The position numbers and the translations under genes were made by a program. Below are positions 1,614 through 8,209 of a DNA stretch of 64,000 nucleotides, in pieces. Below the pieces are notes generated by a model. The model was not told where the DNA came from. It searched no databases and worked only from the letters and a program-made list of their open reading frames with translations. Source of the DNA: a virus (Duplodnaviria; Caudoviricetes); the IMG/VR virus record IMGVR_UViG_3300035396_000186, positions 1 through 64,000 of that record. One strand, written 5' to 3'. The number at the start of each line of letters is the position of its first letter. The stretch's first letter is position 1.

Positions 1614-3587
1614 ATGTCATTATATAATTTTAAGAAAGGGTTAGCATCAAAACCTATGTTGGTTCATGTTGATGAGATATCTAACTTAATGGATGATCCT
1701 GATAAAGATTACTATCAAAGTATATTCAAATACACAGCCGAACATCAAAAGATCTTAATCGAGAAAGGTTCACTTGCCGGAATTAAAGATGTTAAGACTG
1801 ATATACTATACTTCGACTTTGATAACAAAGAAGATATAGAACAAGCAAGAAAAGACGCTATTGAAGTTGTATACAGATTAATTGAAGCTACAGCAGTAGA
1901 GGATTCAATTGAGGTATTCTTTAGTGGAGCTAAAGGATTTGGAGTTATGATACATCTCAATGAAGAATTAACTCCTGATCAGTTTAAGGAAGCTATTAAT
2001 TACTTCGCTAAAGACTTAAAGACATTCGATCCTGTAGTATGTGATCCACAAAGAGTTATTCGATATGTTAATAGTAAACATAACAAAAGTGGATTATTTA
2101 AGATACCACTTGAACTATCCGAATTAGATGAGATGAATGTTGATGAGATTAAAGAGTTGGCTAAGAAACCTAGATATAACACTATACCTAAAACACAAAT
2201 CAGTATATATAGTGATATGATACTTCCCGAAAAAAAGAAAGAAAAAGTTAAAGCTGAGAAACCTAAAGCTCAAGTTGATGAATGGGGAGAAGTAGTAGAC
2301 TCTGAATATTCAATGGATATTAAAACTTGTGACTTAAAGATTAAGCCTAATAATTTTGATGATGCTAGATGGTTATTAAACAATGGGTTCTTCTCAGAAG
2401 GAGAAAGATCTACAGCATTATTATGTCTAGCTAGTTTCTATAAAAGTATTGGATATGCAAAAGAACAGACATATCGATTATTAAAAGGTACTGCTGAACT
2501 ACAATCTAAACGTAGTGGACAAGATAGGTTTCCAGATGTAGAGCTTTGGAATAATGTTGTATCTCAAGTATATGGACCGAATTGGAAGGGTGGTATATTT
2601 AGTTATAAAGATCCTAATTCATGGTTATACAAGTATGCAACTAAACATGGTATCAATGTAAATCAAGTAACTTCCGTTATGAAGTTTGAGGATATAGAAG
2701 CACAATTTAGAGACTTTGTAATTAATATAGATAAGAATACTGTGAAGACCGGGATACGCCAATTAGATGAAGCTATGCCTTTGACAGTAGGAATGGCGTG
2801 TGGACTCGTAGGAGCTGCTTCTAGTGGTAAGACGAGCGTTGCATTAGACATACTAGCTAATACTTCTAAGATGAACGTAACGAGCGTTTTTGCATCTCTA
2901 GACATGTATCGTACAAGAATCTTTGAAAAGTTGACATATAGAGTTACTGGAGGTAAATCTCGTAAAGAAATATATGAAGCTTTCCAACAAGGTAAACATG
3001 CTGAGATTACTCAGAAGATCAAGGATCAATTTGGGAATGTATTCTTTTACGATAGAAGTTCTCCTACAGTTCAGAATATAAAGGATTATGTAATTGATGT
3101 ACAACAAAAAACTGGTGAGAAAGTTAAGCTAGTGATGATCGATTACTTTGAACGAGTTAGTTCTGAAATGTCAGATGATACTGCGGCAAGTAAGCAAGTA
3201 GCAGGAGAGATACAGGATTTAGTAAACGACCTTAACGTTTGCGTAGTAGTATTGTTTCAACCAAATAAACAAGCTTTATCTGGCGGACCGGAAATGCCTA
3301 TACTTAACTATGCATCGATTAAAGGTTCATCATTCGTGTTTCAATCACTTAGAACTATCTTTAGTATATGGAGACCATTCTTTACACCGTTAACTAAAGA
3401 GAAGGATCATTATCTAAGTCTTGGTATTTTGAAGAATGACTTAGGAGTATTAGATACTTTCGACTTTGGGTGGGAAGGTAAGACTGGTAGAATATATGAA
3501 CTAGAGGATTTCCAACGAGAAGAGTTAAAGGAATTGCTAGATCAGAGAGATAAGAAGAAAAAGGAAAAAGATGATGAGTGGAAGTAG
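1614..3587 (+). CDS. Bifunctional primase (AEP/PrimPol-like) - SF4 (DnaB-like) helicase
   Basis: N-terminal YFDFD and FFSGAKGF motifs; C-terminal Walker A GAASSGKTS and Walker B LVMIDY; 657 aa. Confidence 0.85.
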   Translation: MSLYNFKKGLASKPMLVHVDEISNLMDDPDKDYYQSIFKYTAEHQKILIEKGSLAGIKDVKTDILYFDFDNKEDIEQARKDAIEVVYRLIEATAVEDSIEVFFSGAKGFGVMIHLNEELTPDQFKEAINYFAKDLKTFDPVVCDPQRVIRYVNSKHNKSGLFKIPLELSELDEMNVDEIKELAKKPRYNTIPKTQISIYSDMILPEKKKEKVKAEKPKAQVDEWGEVVDSEYSMDIKTCDLKIKPNNFDDARWLLNNGFFSEGERSTALLCLASFYKSIGYAKEQTYRLLKGTAELQSKRSGQDRFPDVELWNNVVSQVYGPNWKGGIFSYKDPNSWLYKYATKHGINVNQVTSVMKFEDIEAQFRDFVINIDKNTVKTGIRQLDEAMPLTVGMACGLVGAASSGKTSVALDILANTSKMNVTSVFASLDMYRTRIFEKLTYRVTGGKSRKEIYEAFQQGKHAEITQKIKDQFGNVFFYDRSSPTVQNIKDYVIDVQQKTGEKVKLVMIDYFERVSSEMSDDTAASKQVAGEIQDLVNDLNVCVVVLFQPNKQALSGGPEMPILNYASIKGSSFVFQSLRTIFSIWRPFFTPLTKEKDHYLSLGILKNDLGVLDTFDFGWEGKTGRIYELEDFQREELKELLDQRDKKKKEKDDEWK

Positions 3588-3836: not shown

Positions 3837-4169
3837 ATGTGTGATAATGTCAAACTTATAAAAGATAGCGATCGACCGTCTATTTCATTAGATAATAGTG
3901 AACCTTGTACTATTATATTCAAATGTGAAAGCGTTGATGATGCTAGAGTATATGCTAATGCTTTTAGATATAAAGATGCATTTGAAGAAGTGTGGATGAA
4001 GCTATTCAGACCGAGACTGAAACATGGGTATAACAGTAAGAAGATCAACGACTTACTAGAAAGAAATGGATCTGAAGATAAAGATGGCGATTTCTCAAGT
4101 CCATGTCACGAGTTGATGGATGAGTTAGAGAAACTATATCACGAGATTAGAGAGGATATCCAAGAATAA
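3837..4169 (+). CDS. Hypothetical protein
   Basis: 110 aa, AAGGAG SD. Confidence 0.7.
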   Translation: MCDNVKLIKDSDRPSISLDNSEPCTIIFKCESVDDARVYANAFRYKDAFEEVWMKLFRPRLKHGYNSKKINDLLERNGSEDKDGDFSSPCHELMDELEKLYHEIREDIQE

Positions 4170-4190
4170 CTACAAACAAAGGGGAAAAAA

Positions 4191-4502
4191 ATGAAAGACT
4201 TAATCGGTTTGTATTATCCTATTAGAAATGATAAAAATCTAATAGTAGGGAAAAAGTTAATTCGGGATGTAGCTTTATACAAAAATACAAAAGGTAAAAC
4301 TTTAGGTTTATGTCTTAAATTCGATGAACATTCAGAGTGGAAGGACGTATTTCAAGGAATGGAACTATACGATTATCAAGGAGAAGCAGTTCAAACATCA
4401 TTTAATTGCGTTCATCTTCTCGAAACGATACAAGATTTGCTTCGAGACTATCCAGAAGTTAAACGAAAAGGTAAGAGAAGCATATTCGTTAAAAAATCTT
4501 GA
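4191..4502 (+). CDS. Hypothetical protein
   Basis: 103 aa, GGGG SD. Confidence 0.65.
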   Translation: MKDLIGLYYPIRNDKNLIVGKKLIRDVALYKNTKGKTLGLCLKFDEHSEWKDVFQGMELYDYQGEAVQTSFNCVHLLETIQDLLRDYPEVKRKGKRSIFVKKS

Positions 4503-4546
4503 TAATACTGAATAATATGTTATACTATACTCTAGCGAGGTAGTAT

Positions 4547-4676
4547 ATGAGATTATGGTCAGTACATCCTAAACATCTAGATTCAAAAGGTTTAGTCGCT
4601 TTATGGCGATGAATATTTACCTAATCCATTATTTTCTCTTGTAGATGGAGATATTGAATCCTGGGAGATATTATAA
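4547..4676 (+). pseudogene. Internally deleted pyrimidine-dimer DNA glycosylase (endonuclease V family) remnant
   Basis: After a GAGG SD: MRLWSVHPKHLDSKGLVALWR* (family-typical N-terminus); in the +1 frame EYLPNPLFSLVDGDIESWEIL* resembles the family C-terminus; the middle is missing. Confidence 0.75.
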
Positions 4677-4714
4677 TAGTAGATCTTTAATAATTTTTAG
4701 AGTAGAATATAGTT

Positions 4715-6256
4715 ATGTATAGTAATGCTTTAATATACGGTAAAAATCCTTTAGAACGTATTGTCTCGCTTGAAGTTGTAGATGATCAATTAGAAGTCTT
4801 TCAACAACAAGATGATGGTTCTATCCATTCAATATTCTTTCCTAATAGATTCTGGCTGTTATCGCCTAAATGGTTTGGAGACGGTTCAGTTAAACTACAA
4901 GGTAATCAACATTACTGTTACGGTAAACAATATAAAGAACGTAAAGAATTTATGTCAGAACGTGGTAGGATGTCTAAATCAGATGTCTTTAGTATATTCA
5001 ATCCTAAAGAAGCTATAATGGTAAAAGATGGATATACTTACTTCAAAGGACTTAAACCTAATGAAGTATCAATACTATCATTCGATATTGAAACTACTGG
5101 ACTTAAGATGAATGATACATCTAAAGTATTACTTATATCAAATACATTTAGAGATAGCAAAGGTAAAGTAACTCGTAAACTATTTTCATATGAGAACTAT
5201 GCTTGTTGTGGTGAGATGATACTGGATTGGAGTAACTGGGTGCAAACTGTAGATCCTAGCATTTTATGCACACACAATGGTATGTGTTACGATTTACCGT
5301 ATATGCATTATTGTGCAGGTAAGACTGGACATAACTTAGAGATAGGTAGAGATGGATCTAATATTCAATTTGAAGAGTTCGAACGTAAATATCGAGTAGA
5401 TGGTTCTAGGGAGCTTAGTTATAAACGAGCTAGTATATATGGAAGAGAAATAGTAGATACAATGTTCCTAGCTTATAAGTATGATGCAGCTAGTAAGAAG
5501 TATGAATCATATGGATTAAAGAATATCATTAAGCAAGAGGGATTAGAGAAGAAGGATAGACAGTTTTACGATGCTGGCAAAATCAAAGATAATTATCGAG
5601 ATTCTGCTGAGTGGGAGAAGATTAAGAAATATGCAATTGAAGATTCTGATGATGCGTTGATGTTATACGATTTAATGATACCAGCATTCTTTTATATGAC
5701 ACAATCTATCCCTAAGAGTTTTCAGATAATGATTGAAAGTGCAACTGGAGCACAGTTAAATAGTCTATTAGTACGTTCTTATTTACAAGAAAAGTATAGT
5801 ATTCCTAAAGCTGATGATGTAATTCAATATGAAGGTGCGATAAGTTTTGGGATTCCTGGGATATATAGAAATGTCCTTAAGGTCGATGCAGTTTCAGAGT
5901 ATCCAAGTTGTATGATACAGTACGAAGTTTATGATAAGAAAAAGGATCCTAAGAAAAATTTTTTTAAAATGGTTGAAACATTTACATCTCAAAGAATTGC
6001 ACATAAGAAGTTAGCTAAAGATACTGGAGATAAATATTATAAAGATATGGAACAAGCAGAAAAAATCGCAATTAATTCTGCATATGGTCTACTAGGCGCT
6101 CCAGGACTTAATTTCAATAGTCCTCAGAATGCAGCACTAGTTACTAAACTAGGAAGAGAATGCATCATGAAGTCTATAGAATGGGCATCTGGAAAATCTT
6201 CACAGTATTGGATTGATAAATGTAAAGGAGAAAATGAAGATGAGTCGTCAGAGTGA
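4715..6256 (+). CDS. polB: Family B DNA polymerase, N-terminal part (3'-5' exonuclease plus pol motifs A and B)
   Basis: ExoI SFDIETTG, ExoII HNGMCYDLPY, ExoIII YAIEDSD, motif A DAVSEYPS, motif B KIAINSAYG; no DTD motif in this ORF. Confidence 0.9.
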   Translation: MYSNALIYGKNPLERIVSLEVVDDQLEVFQQQDDGSIHSIFFPNRFWLLSPKWFGDGSVKLQGNQHYCYGKQYKERKEFMSERGRMSKSDVFSIFNPKEAIMVKDGYTYFKGLKPNEVSILSFDIETTGLKMNDTSKVLLISNTFRDSKGKVTRKLFSYENYACCGEMILDWSNWVQTVDPSILCTHNGMCYDLPYMHYCAGKTGHNLEIGRDGSNIQFEEFERKYRVDGSRELSYKRASIYGREIVDTMFLAYKYDAASKKYESYGLKNIIKQEGLEKKDRQFYDAGKIKDNYRDSAEWEKIKKYAIEDSDDALMLYDLMIPAFFYMTQSIPKSFQIMIESATGAQLNSLLVRSYLQEKYSIPKADDVIQYEGAISFGIPGIYRNVLKVDAVSEYPSCMIQYEVYDKKKDPKKNFFKMVETFTSQRIAHKKLAKDTGDKYYKDMEQAEKIAINSAYGLLGAPGLNFNSPQNAALVTKLGRECIMKSIEWASGKSSQYWIDKCKGENEDESSE

Positions 6257-6809
6257 AGCGAATAGAAGAAAAGATACTTGTATTGAATGTGGTAGGTTCA
6301 TGCCTATTAAAGCTAAGAATATGTGTCAAAACTGTTGGCATAAACATAAAAGACGCTATGATTTAAATTTCTTTCTACGAACAAGATATGTAGAATTAAA
6401 AAACCGATGTTCTAATCCGAATGAACCGAAGAATAATTATCTAGGAATGAAATATTGTTCGTTAATGGAATTCTATTCTTTTTTTATAAATGATAATAAA
6501 CTCAAGAAACTATTTAAGAATTGGCAGAAATCGAATTTTGATTTTAAACTAGCACCTTCTATTGATAGGATAGACCCTAAAAAAGGGTATATACTCGGTA
6601 ATATGCAATTTATTACACATTCTGAAAATTGTACTAAAGATCAAATAATGACGAAAATAAGAATGTTCTCTAAGGATAGGATATATATTCGTGATTTTAT
6701 CTCACAAGGAGAAGCTGAACGACAATTAGGAATACCTCAAGCTAATATTTGGAAAGTTTTAAATAAGGAAAGAAATAGTGCAGGAGGATATTACTTTGAA
6801 TACGCATAA
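6240..6809 (+). mobile_element. Free-standing HNH-family homing endonuclease with C-terminal NUMOD1-like domain, inside the polymerase locus
   Basis: N-terminal CxxC...CxxC; KNRCSNP...SIDRIDPKKGY..GN.QF.T..EN HNH-like core; C-terminal EAERQLGI..NI..VL...SAGGY; start at 6240 chosen from GGAG SD at 6227-6230. Confidence 0.8.
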
Positions 6810-7476
6810 TTTTATTATTACTAATTGTGACACAGATAGTATTAGCTTTTGTAAACAAGATCAAACTAAATTTTCTTCTGATGAAATTAGTAAATTAATT
6901 GATGATCTAAATAGTAATTTCCCAGAAAAGATTCGATTTGCAAATGACGGTTACTTCCCAGTATTCGTAGTATTGAAAGCTAAGAACTATATCATGTGGG
7001 ATGGAACTAAACTTAAGTTCAAAGGTTCTGCTCTTAAAGATGCTAAGAAAGAACCTGCGCTTAAAGAATTTCAAAAGGCAGTTATCGATAGTATCATTTT
7101 CGAGAAGAATGATTATACTGAGATCTATAATAAATATATACGAGAAGCTATGAACATCACAGACATTAAACGTTGGGCTTCTAAGAAGACGATATCTAAA
7201 ACTGCAATGGAATCTACTCGCAGTAACGAGACCAGAATCATGGACGCTTTAGTAGGTAAAGACTTTAGTGAAGGCGATAAAGTATATATGTTCTTTCGTG
7301 AGAAAGAGAAGTTAGCTTTAGTTGAAGATTTTGATGGAACATATGATAAGGATAAAGTATTAGAGAAGTTATACAAAACAGTACAAGTATTTAAATCAGT
7401 TATAGATATTGAGAAGTATTTTCCTAATTATAAACTTAGGAAGAATAAACCTTTATTAAATAAGATCATAGACTAA
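6796..7476 (+). CDS. polB: Family B DNA polymerase, C-terminal part (motif C and thumb)
   Basis: NCDTDSISF motif C, KAKNYI, LKFKGS thumb motifs; likely TTG start at 6796 with AGGAGG SD at 6782-6787. Confidence 0.88.
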   Translation: MNTHNFIITNCDTDSISFCKQDQTKFSSDEISKLIDDLNSNFPEKIRFANDGYFPVFVVLKAKNYIMWDGTKLKFKGSALKDAKKEPALKEFQKAVIDSIIFEKNDYTEIYNKYIREAMNITDIKRWASKKTISKTAMESTRSNETRIMDALVGKDFSEGDKVYMFFREKEKLALVEDFDGTYDKDKVLEKLYKTVQVFKSVIDIEKYFPNYKLRKNKPLLNKIID

Positions 7477-7483
7477 GTTTTGT

Positions 7484-7512
7484 TAGACAAATCTATAGTT
7501 TTATGTTATCAT
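7484..7512 (+). promoter_or_regulatory. Sigma70-type promoter
   Basis: TAGACA-17-TATCAT with extended TG. Confidence 0.55.
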
Positions 7513-7529
7513 ATATCAGAGGTGTTTAT

Positions 7530-7679
7530 ATGGATTATAAAAATACAGTTTCCGAATTCTTCAAACGATATCGTAAAGAGTTTCGTACTTATAAACGTGA
7601 AGTTATAGGTAAGCTCATCCCGAAGGGTCTTCGTCTTACAAAAAGAATAAATTTTAGTAAGAAAAGGACAATTAAATGA
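7530..7679 (+). pseudogene. Frameshifted small basic protein (or sequencing error)
   Basis: ATG with GAGG SD; one extra A in the A4 run at 7539-7542 would give MDYKNTVSEFFKRYRKEF...KRTIK*, whose TGA overlaps the next ATG. Confidence 0.45.
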
Positions 7680-7861
7680 ACGGACTAAAAACTATTTTAG
7701 TTGAATATTTTAACAAACAACCGTATGTTAGTCTTTCTGAAGTTCAGAGGGTTATTCGAGAATATGATAAAGAAATAGAAAGATTGAAAGTTGCTAATGA
7801 TACATATAATGAATTAGAGATGTATGATTGGGATATGCATAATGGAGATGAATATGAATAA
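7676..7861 (+). CDS. Hypothetical protein
   Basis: 61 aa, AGGA SD. Confidence 0.6.
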   Translation: MNGLKTILVEYFNKQPYVSLSEVQRVIREYDKEIERLKVANDTYNELEMYDWDMHNGDEYE

Positions 7862-8060
7862 TTTTTATAAACTAGTTCAAGAATATGAAGATTTAGTCAA
7901 ACGAGTAGCTAGAAGAACTGGTGTAATAGTTGAACCGACTCGTTATTCATTTTTCTTAGAAATGATCGAACGTAGATTAAATAAAGGACTTCCAGTAGAA
8001 GAATCTGATTTATTTACATTAGCTAATAATATAAACAAGGTAAATTTATGCGAAGAATAG
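7824..8060 (+). CDS. Hypothetical protein (true start probably ~7854)
   Basis: Tightly packed ORF with GGAG SD near the internal Met. Confidence 0.6.
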   Translation: MIGICIMEMNMNNFYKLVQEYEDLVKRVARRTGVIVEPTRYSFFLEMIERRLNKGLPVEESDLFTLANNINKVNLCEE

Positions 8061-8209
8061 ACAAACCAGTAACTCTTAAAAATCTAATAGATATTAAGTA
8101 CCAAGAACTATTGAAGAAGTTGAAAAATTAAATCATTATACTAATTTACAATTATTAAAAGCTAAAGATAATTTATGTAAATCAAGTAAGATATTTTAGA
8201 AGGTATACT

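Follow-up and report, generated by a model that had tools for sequence, protein, structure and literature searches.

The window examined here is the whole stretch of 64,000 nucleotides that forms the first 64 kb of the IMG/VR virus record IMGVR_UViG_3300035396_000186 (82,209 bp, estimated to be ~95% complete, from a microbial-mat metagenome), and it carries the gene for a family B DNA polymerase (polB) in two parts with a homing endonuclease gene (HEG) between them. Neither a second PolB nor a PolA was found in the 82-kb record and, at its ~95% completeness, the split enzyme appears to be the only DNA polymerase of the phage. The explanation favoured here, which we consider likely, is that of a two-polypeptide polymerase whose halves are translated separately and assemble non-covalently, with a HEG that sits in an already split junction and with a split module that has been moved by gene conversion. 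As part of this explanation, and with the same good confidence, the HNH/I-HmuI-like HEG would be a selfish, site-specific resident of the polB junction.

The three genes lie on the + strand as overlapping open reading frames (ORFs) in three different frames. The polB N-half (4715..6256, ATG 4715 to TGA 6256, mod 3 = 2) encodes 513 aa comprising the N-terminal domain, the 3′-5′ exonuclease (ExoI-III), palm motif A, the fingers and motif B, and it ends in a C-terminal tail, GKSSQYWIDKCKGENEDESSE (6191..6253, + strand), in which the GKxxxYW part is conserved and the last residues are DESSE. The C-half (6796..7476, TTG 6796 to TAA, mod 3 = 1) encodes 226 aa, beginning (L/M)NTHNFIITNCDTDS, with the motif C strand NCDTDS (6823-6840), the KxY motif (KAKNY) and the thumb. 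The HEG (6240..6809, mod 3 = 0) encodes 189 aa and is likely to start at ATG 6240 and to end with the TAA at 6807-6809 of ORF 6213-6809; there are alternative in-frame starts at 6234 and 6213, with ATG 6240 being the start conserved in its family. The gap between the polymerase halves is 539 nt (6257-6795) and lies entirely inside the HEG ORF.

Translation signals are shared between neighbouring genes. A Shine-Dalgarno sequence (SD) for the HEG, GGAG (6227..6230, +), lies within the polymerase tail codons 9 nt 5′ of ATG 6240, while that of the C-half, AGGAGG (6782..6787, +), lies within the HEG codons AGT GCA GGA GGA (SAGG), 8 nt 5′ of TTG 6796. A second, weaker candidate start for the C-half is GTG 6778, with AAGGA 8 nt upstream; TTG 6796 is favoured since homologous C-halves start 1-5 residues ahead of 'HNF'. 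The sequence-only reading, which had placed the exonuclease and motifs A and B in the first ORF and motif C in the last, each in its own frame, was correct in all its coordinates and in its description of both SD overlaps. No terminator was detected by a scan between the cistrons and promoter-like sites were at chance level; the three genes would form one operon with overlapping ends.

Across the two halves, ExoI-III and motifs A, B and C (DTDS) are all present, placing the polymerase in family B. The N-half matches PF03104 (DNA_pol_B_exo1) and PF00136 (DNA_pol_B) above the Pfam cut-offs and also the PHROG DNA polymerase, and its motifs were read as ExoI FDIET, ExoII, ExoIII, motif A VDAVSEYPS and motif B KIAINSAYG. 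The C-half family profile aligns to residues 531-642 of the KOD/9N archaeal PolBs, from just before motif C into the thumb, and the AlphaFold model of a fused relative, P0040 (mean pLDDT 91), matches the KOD/9N/Tgo archaeal PolBs with a TM of about 0.7. A composite active site had been proposed from the sequence, and indeed the aspartates of motif A and motif C are on different polypeptides, which means that the active site must be composite.

N-half homologues with E ≤ 0.001 numbered 2191 among the candidates scored. For the C-half there were 318 representative proteins with E ≤ 0.001, counted among 50%-identity cluster representatives, the best of which are mostly free-standing proteins, 220-260 aa in length, with starts at query residues 1-8. 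The mean column identity of free-standing halves is just 36-61%, with D124/E126, D193, D310, D391 and K450 invariant in 43 split N-halves and D12, D14 and K63-N64-Y65 invariant in 41 free-standing C-halves. This invariance of catalytic residues in diverged free-standing halves points to purifying selection on the split form and argues that it is functional. At 5897-5899 of the window (N-half residue 395), motif A has SEYPS for the SLYPS of the clade, with Glu for Leu beside the steric-gate Tyr, while the related locus L004 has Cys at this position; an effect of the Glu on nucleotide selection is possible.

The split is widespread among relatives, with 50 of the 120 closest N-half homologues (54-60% identity) being split at exactly the site of the window. 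Their N-halves are 497-546 aa long and nearly all of them have a tail that reads WA[ST]GKxx(Y/F/E)W.... Junction content was surveyed in 10 split loci chosen via the polymerase, regardless of endonuclease. Nothing lies between the halves in four of these, the halves overlapping by 14 nt in L006 and L007 and being separated by a spacer of about 80 or 95 nt in L011 and L013. The HNH family of the window occupies the junction in two (L014, L021) and a GIY-YIG endonuclease unrelated to the window HEG in another two (L004, L012), while the last two have other ORFs, these being an unrelated 69-aa ORF in L008 and an unrelated 193-aa Gly/Asn-rich ORF in L015. In six loci (L001-L003, L009, L010 and L022) polB is uninterrupted.

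The sequence-only reading held that polB had been split by the endonuclease, and this was not borne out, as the same split, with homologous tail and leader, is found in the four HEG-less loci and also with the unrelated GIY-YIG endonucleases, and the window HEG is a separable unit of 562 nt. The reading had also asked whether relatives without the endonuclease have a fused or an already split polB, and both states occur (fused, for example, in L001; split in L006, L007, L011 and L013). The split appears to be a property of the clade and not of the HEG of the window.

Some further variation was seen among these polymerases. The junction ORF of L015 (5278-5859) is collagen-like with a signal-peptide-like start, and the C-half of this locus has a 65-aa N-terminal extension. 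Split N-halves P0018 and P0065 (538-546 aa) possess a longer, different tail (...ELIPVKIPKKTEKGKDKFLWLDP...). In P0238, a protein of 1218 aa, the C-half match lies at 939-1102, which suggests a large insertion upstream, possibly an intein.

Compared with a HEG-less split junction, the window differs by the insertion or deletion of the 562-nt unit (6239..6800, + strand), with flanks ATGAA (6234-6238) and TTGAA (6796-6800). In silico removal of this unit leaves an N-half ending ...ENEYA* that overlaps a C-half beginning MNTHNF..., and L006 has ...ENESA* overlapping MNQHNF.... The HEG start corresponds to the C-half start position of L006 and the HEG stop to the TAA of the L006 N-half, while the last five tail residues of the window N-half (DESSE) are HEG 5′ DNA read in another frame.

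The tail and the leader that precede motif C can be traced to a single insert. From the motif B Lys to the motif C Asp there are 52 residues in two distant cultured outgroups, Salinibacter phage M31CC-1 and Anabaena phage A-1(L), and in the compact L001, and 55 of 70 fused forms share one uniform compact motif B-C spacing, for which reasons the compact form is taken as ancestral and the insert as derived. Split alleles have 23-26 extra residues between motifs B and C. Compact fused forms lack the tail, which is homologous to the in-frame insert of a third type of protein, with nine or 10 fused proteins bearing an in-frame homologue of tail plus leader (WASGxxYxxWxxKFY...YQHDFII.PSDTDS). In the model of P0040 the tail motif forms a helix at residues 498-509 (block pLDDT 89-95), with a linker leading from it to the motif C strands. 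The break site lies in the palm, inside the derived insert and just upstream of the motif C strand. As the insert is common to the alleles, it probably arose only once. Since alleles bearing HNH and GIY-YIG endonucleases share it, at most one HEG family can have made the split and the other entered an existing junction.

A tight clade of fused PolBs carries this module as a 35-aa in-frame insert (P0040, P0066, P0073, P0079, P0081, P0088 and P0092). Fused-with-insert PolBs could be re-fused split genes, and they represent natural single-chain versions of the two-subunit enzyme.

The distribution of split and fused forms was examined on an N-half tree (FastTree, junction columns excluded). The split/fused state requires at least 19 changes on this tree versus about 39 for shuffled labels, and at least 12 of the changes are forced by well-supported branches. 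The clade of the window has 10 members (support 99), all 10 of which are split, including the HEG-less L013.

The most direct view of movement is given by a pair of loci, the split, HEG-bearing L021 and the compact fused L022, which share their gene order and are 96-100% identical in DNA on either side of a tract that does not align. This tract is about 1.1 kb in L021 (6146-7241) and about 0.5 kb in L022 (6146-6642), and in L021 it contains the last ~130 N-half codons, the tail, the HNH HEG, the leader and 56 C-half codons. Protein identity of the pair drops from 100% to 55% along the N-half. The L021 HEG is 38% identical to that of the window, and the replaced tract reaches ~390 bp upstream and ~170 bp downstream of it. 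The pair shows a presence/absence polymorphism at one site with co-converted flanks, which is the pattern of gene conversion expected for intron-less homing, and it shows that compact and split alleles can replace each other in one step.

The favoured reading would work as follows. One transcript would be translated from three initiations, independent or coupled. Translation of the HEG would begin from the SD in the polymerase tail, and the C-half would start from the AGGAGG in the last HEG codons, possibly coupled to HEG termination 9 nt downstream. The halves would then assemble as a non-covalent heterodimer, in which the motif A Asp and motif B of the N-half meet the motif C Asp residues and thumb of the C-half; such a heterodimer is suggested by the conservation of the free-standing halves. 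The conserved tail helix probably aids this assembly; the analogy is with phage Aeh1, whose split NrdA has essential tails (Crona et al., 2011, PMC3045599). In co-infection the endonuclease would cleave HEG-less alleles, and its gene would then be copied in. In the lineage of the window the HEG most likely settled in an already split junction, and across the clade the split module (tail, stop/start and leader), with or without HEG, would convert compact fused polB alleles to split ones.

A broader proposal, which we put forward tentatively and with doubt slightly outweighing belief, is that the tail-helix and leader are a portable 'split-tolerance' cassette of single origin that was carried into compact polB by at least two HEG families, outlives the HEG and can be re-fused. 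If this is true, one gene-conversion event turns a one-chain polymerase into a working two-chain enzyme, and the clade represents a natural series of compact, split with HEG, split without HEG, and re-fused forms.

The main rival is that the HNH HEG itself split polB here, with homing bringing HEG, tail and leader together into a compact polB and with the HEG-less relatives being later deletions. The L021/L022 pair, in which a HEG-bearing cassette and a compact allele interchange in one conversion tract, is in keeping with this, as is the ancestral compact geometry; a deletion between ATGAA and TTGAA would yield exactly the junction of L006, and the tails of Aeh1 nrdA arose together with the mobE insertion (PMC3045599). 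However, the unrelated HNH and GIY-YIG HEGs are in junctions with homologous tail and leader, and no more than one of the two can have split the gene originally. In addition, a HEG is missing from four of the 10 split loci in the unbiased sample, and the clade of the window is split throughout and yet includes a HEG-less member. The HEGs are also about as diverged as the polymerase halves (46-60% versus 41-55%), a comparison that gives no signal of recent transfer into the window lineage. We regard this rival as unlikely, though it is the only one to retain appreciable weight.

Certain observations count against the reading favoured here. The 562-nt indel could equally be an insertion or a deletion, only 10 loci make up the unbiased junction sample, and the tree sequences are all about 55% identical, with many weak deep nodes. 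The whole HEG family, moreover, has SIDRID, with Arg where the canonical catalytic first His of HNH is expected; its nuclease core may be a variant beta-beta-alpha-Me core.

Rejoining of the halves, whether by group I intron splicing, protein (trans-)splicing, ribosomal frameshifting or bypass, is very improbable. It is suggested by the motif C region being a classical intron/intein site in PolB genes and by the end of the leader, His-Asn or His-Asp (THNF), which is faintly intein-like. Against an intron, Rfam gave no intron match in 5900-7100 even at E ≤ 10, and the HEG ORF fills the 539-nt gap completely and runs into both halves, leaving no non-coding sequence there, which upholds the earlier view that the endonuclease leaves no room for an intron. 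The exclusion of an intein is likewise confirmed by the frames and by the sizes of the parts, as there are three frames with stops, the tail is ~20 aa without Cys/Ser at position 1, and the leader is 4-5 aa followed by Phe and not by Cys/Ser/Thr; tail and leader are too short for split-intein parts and lack intein blocks. RNA folds at both junctions were no better than those of shuffled sequences (z = 0.2-0.5) and no regulatory hairpin was seen in them. At this place the halves of relatives overlap, are parted by spacers of 50-180 nt or flank inserts of 0.6-0.7 kb, and given such varied junctions only separate initiation works in all of them. A reading of the 'HN-F' leader as a vestigial intein was rejected, since it is too short and has no nucleophile, as was an alternative code, where TGA as Trp adds only three codons to the N-half before a TAG.

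That the gene is dead or the locus wrongly assembled, as the modest depth of the metagenome assembly (word depth about 9) might suggest, is also very improbable: the independent Logan assembly of the probable source run (microbial mat) is identical over 5700-7300, so the assembly error that the sequence-only reading named as a possible refutation was not borne out, five contigs from other samples carry the three-gene arrangement with a homologous HEG at the same junction, the catalytic motifs are intact with the halves conserved across dozens of split relatives, and the genome record has yielded no other polymerase. Among sequencing runs, a single DNA run, probably that of the source sample, was listed as containing the sequence, and no RNA run was.

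The endonuclease matches PHROG HNH families (E = 1e-9), with no match to a Pfam HNH model, as well as PF22083, the I-HmuI NUMOD-like domain (E = 2e-5). Its family profile matches residues 108-171 of I-HmuI (PDB 1u3e), a match over the C-terminal DNA-binding module. The protein can be divided into a CxxC...CxxC zinc finger, a putative SIDRID..N..H..N nuclease core and an I-HmuI-like C-terminal DNA-binding domain. The family has ~40 full-length members with 43-63% identity that begin with MS(R/H), and it has 14 invariant residues, all of which are present in the window copy, including C14, C17, C29, C32, S107, D109, R110, N121 and N130; H127 is nearly invariant. The family was found at the polB junction in all six of the further loci examined (named loci being L014, L016-L018 and L021), with L016-L018 having been picked through the HEG and not the polymerase.

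At 9166-9552 of L011, ~2.4 kb downstream of its HEG-less split polB, lies a relative (30% identity) of the first 130 aa of the window HEG, and the family must accordingly also occur outside the polB junction. Other nuclease genes are plentiful close to the replication module of the related phages (L012 3113-3499; L014 1-128 and 8233-8551); they include Endonuclease_7 directly upstream of polB, GIY-YIG/NUMOD beside ERF, and HNH_3/AP2.

Upstream of polB the window encodes a DnaB-type primase-helicase of 657 aa (1614-3587; DnaB_C domain at 377-626), and the gene order of helicase, small ORFs and polB is kept in all related loci. Megablast of 4000-8200 against GenBank phages gave zero matches. At the protein level, the cultured phages that come closest are those of Salinibacter and Nostoc/Anabaena, with 27-29% identity. 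The search for related loci gave none with the C-half alone and at least three with alignment A1.

Phage genes in pieces around free-standing HEGs are known, namely Aeh1 nrdA with mobE, T4 39/60 with mobA, and gene 43 of Aeromonas phages 25, 31 and 44RR (PMC2988022, PMC2677866), and the split of the window is a known type of arrangement, here at a new position in the gene, in a large clade of uncultivated phages. Of the precedents named by the sequence-only reading, the gp43 of T4-like phages is split elsewhere, between motifs A and B. According to the account in PMC2988022 of Petrov et al. (2006, 2010), the T4-related Aeromonas phages 44RR2.8t, 31 and 25 likewise have a family B polymerase as two adjacent cistrons, with some of the junctions described there being a short spacer and others holding a free-standing seg-type GIY-YIG HEG. 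The split gp43A and gp43B co-purify and are active (PMC2988022). In the record of 44RR2.8t, gp43A has 498 aa and stops within the fingers, while gp43B has 391 aa and starts ahead of KILINSLYG, which puts its break between motifs A and B, whereas that of the window is between B and C. Phage clade, polymerase subfamily (an archaeal-PolB-like fold in the window) and HEG family also differ.

The nrdA-a/mobE/nrdA-b arrangement of Aeh1 resembles that of the window in having an HNH-type free-standing HEG between the halves of an essential gene of nucleotide metabolism or replication in one operon, and in having short extra tails at the break that are not in uninterrupted homologues, with no RNA or protein splicing (PMC3045599). 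It differs in its host gene, in that the tails were shown to be essential there while their role in the window is inferred, and in that the window-type split persists widely without a HEG.

The small C-terminal subunit of the two-gene PolB of Methanothermobacter is reportedly similar in size to the C-half of the window. As recounted in PMC2677866 and PMC4104785, this archaeal enzyme also has its catalytic domain on two polypeptides, both of which are needed (Kelman et al., 1999). Unlike that of the window, however, the split is chromosomal and, in those accounts, is attributed to faulty intein excision, with no HEG (PMC2677866, PMC4104785). The 'fractured genes' of Dassa et al. (2009, PMC2677866) are similar in that a HEG lies between the halves of replication genes in environmental phage-like DNA, but there split inteins flank the HEG, whereas the window is without intein parts. 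The gene-breaking model of the same authors includes later loss of the HEG (Dassa et al., 2009, PMC2677866).

Essential phage genes known to function 'in pieces' around a selfish endonuclease are few, and the locus is a further, well-documented example. It is distinctive in that motif C is parted from motifs A and B and in that its relatives supply all intermediate states, including a near-isogenic split/fused pair. For the annotation of such phages, it means that 'polymerase fragments' of ~500 aa and ~225 aa should not be called pseudogenes. These phages also offer enzymology natural two-chain family B polymerases with defined assembly tails, whose role is so far a predicted one. Whether a HEG created or invaded its split gene is a question already raised for the gene 43 HEG of phage 25 (PMC2988022), and with all states present within one clade, whether endonucleases create or invade split genes becomes testable there.

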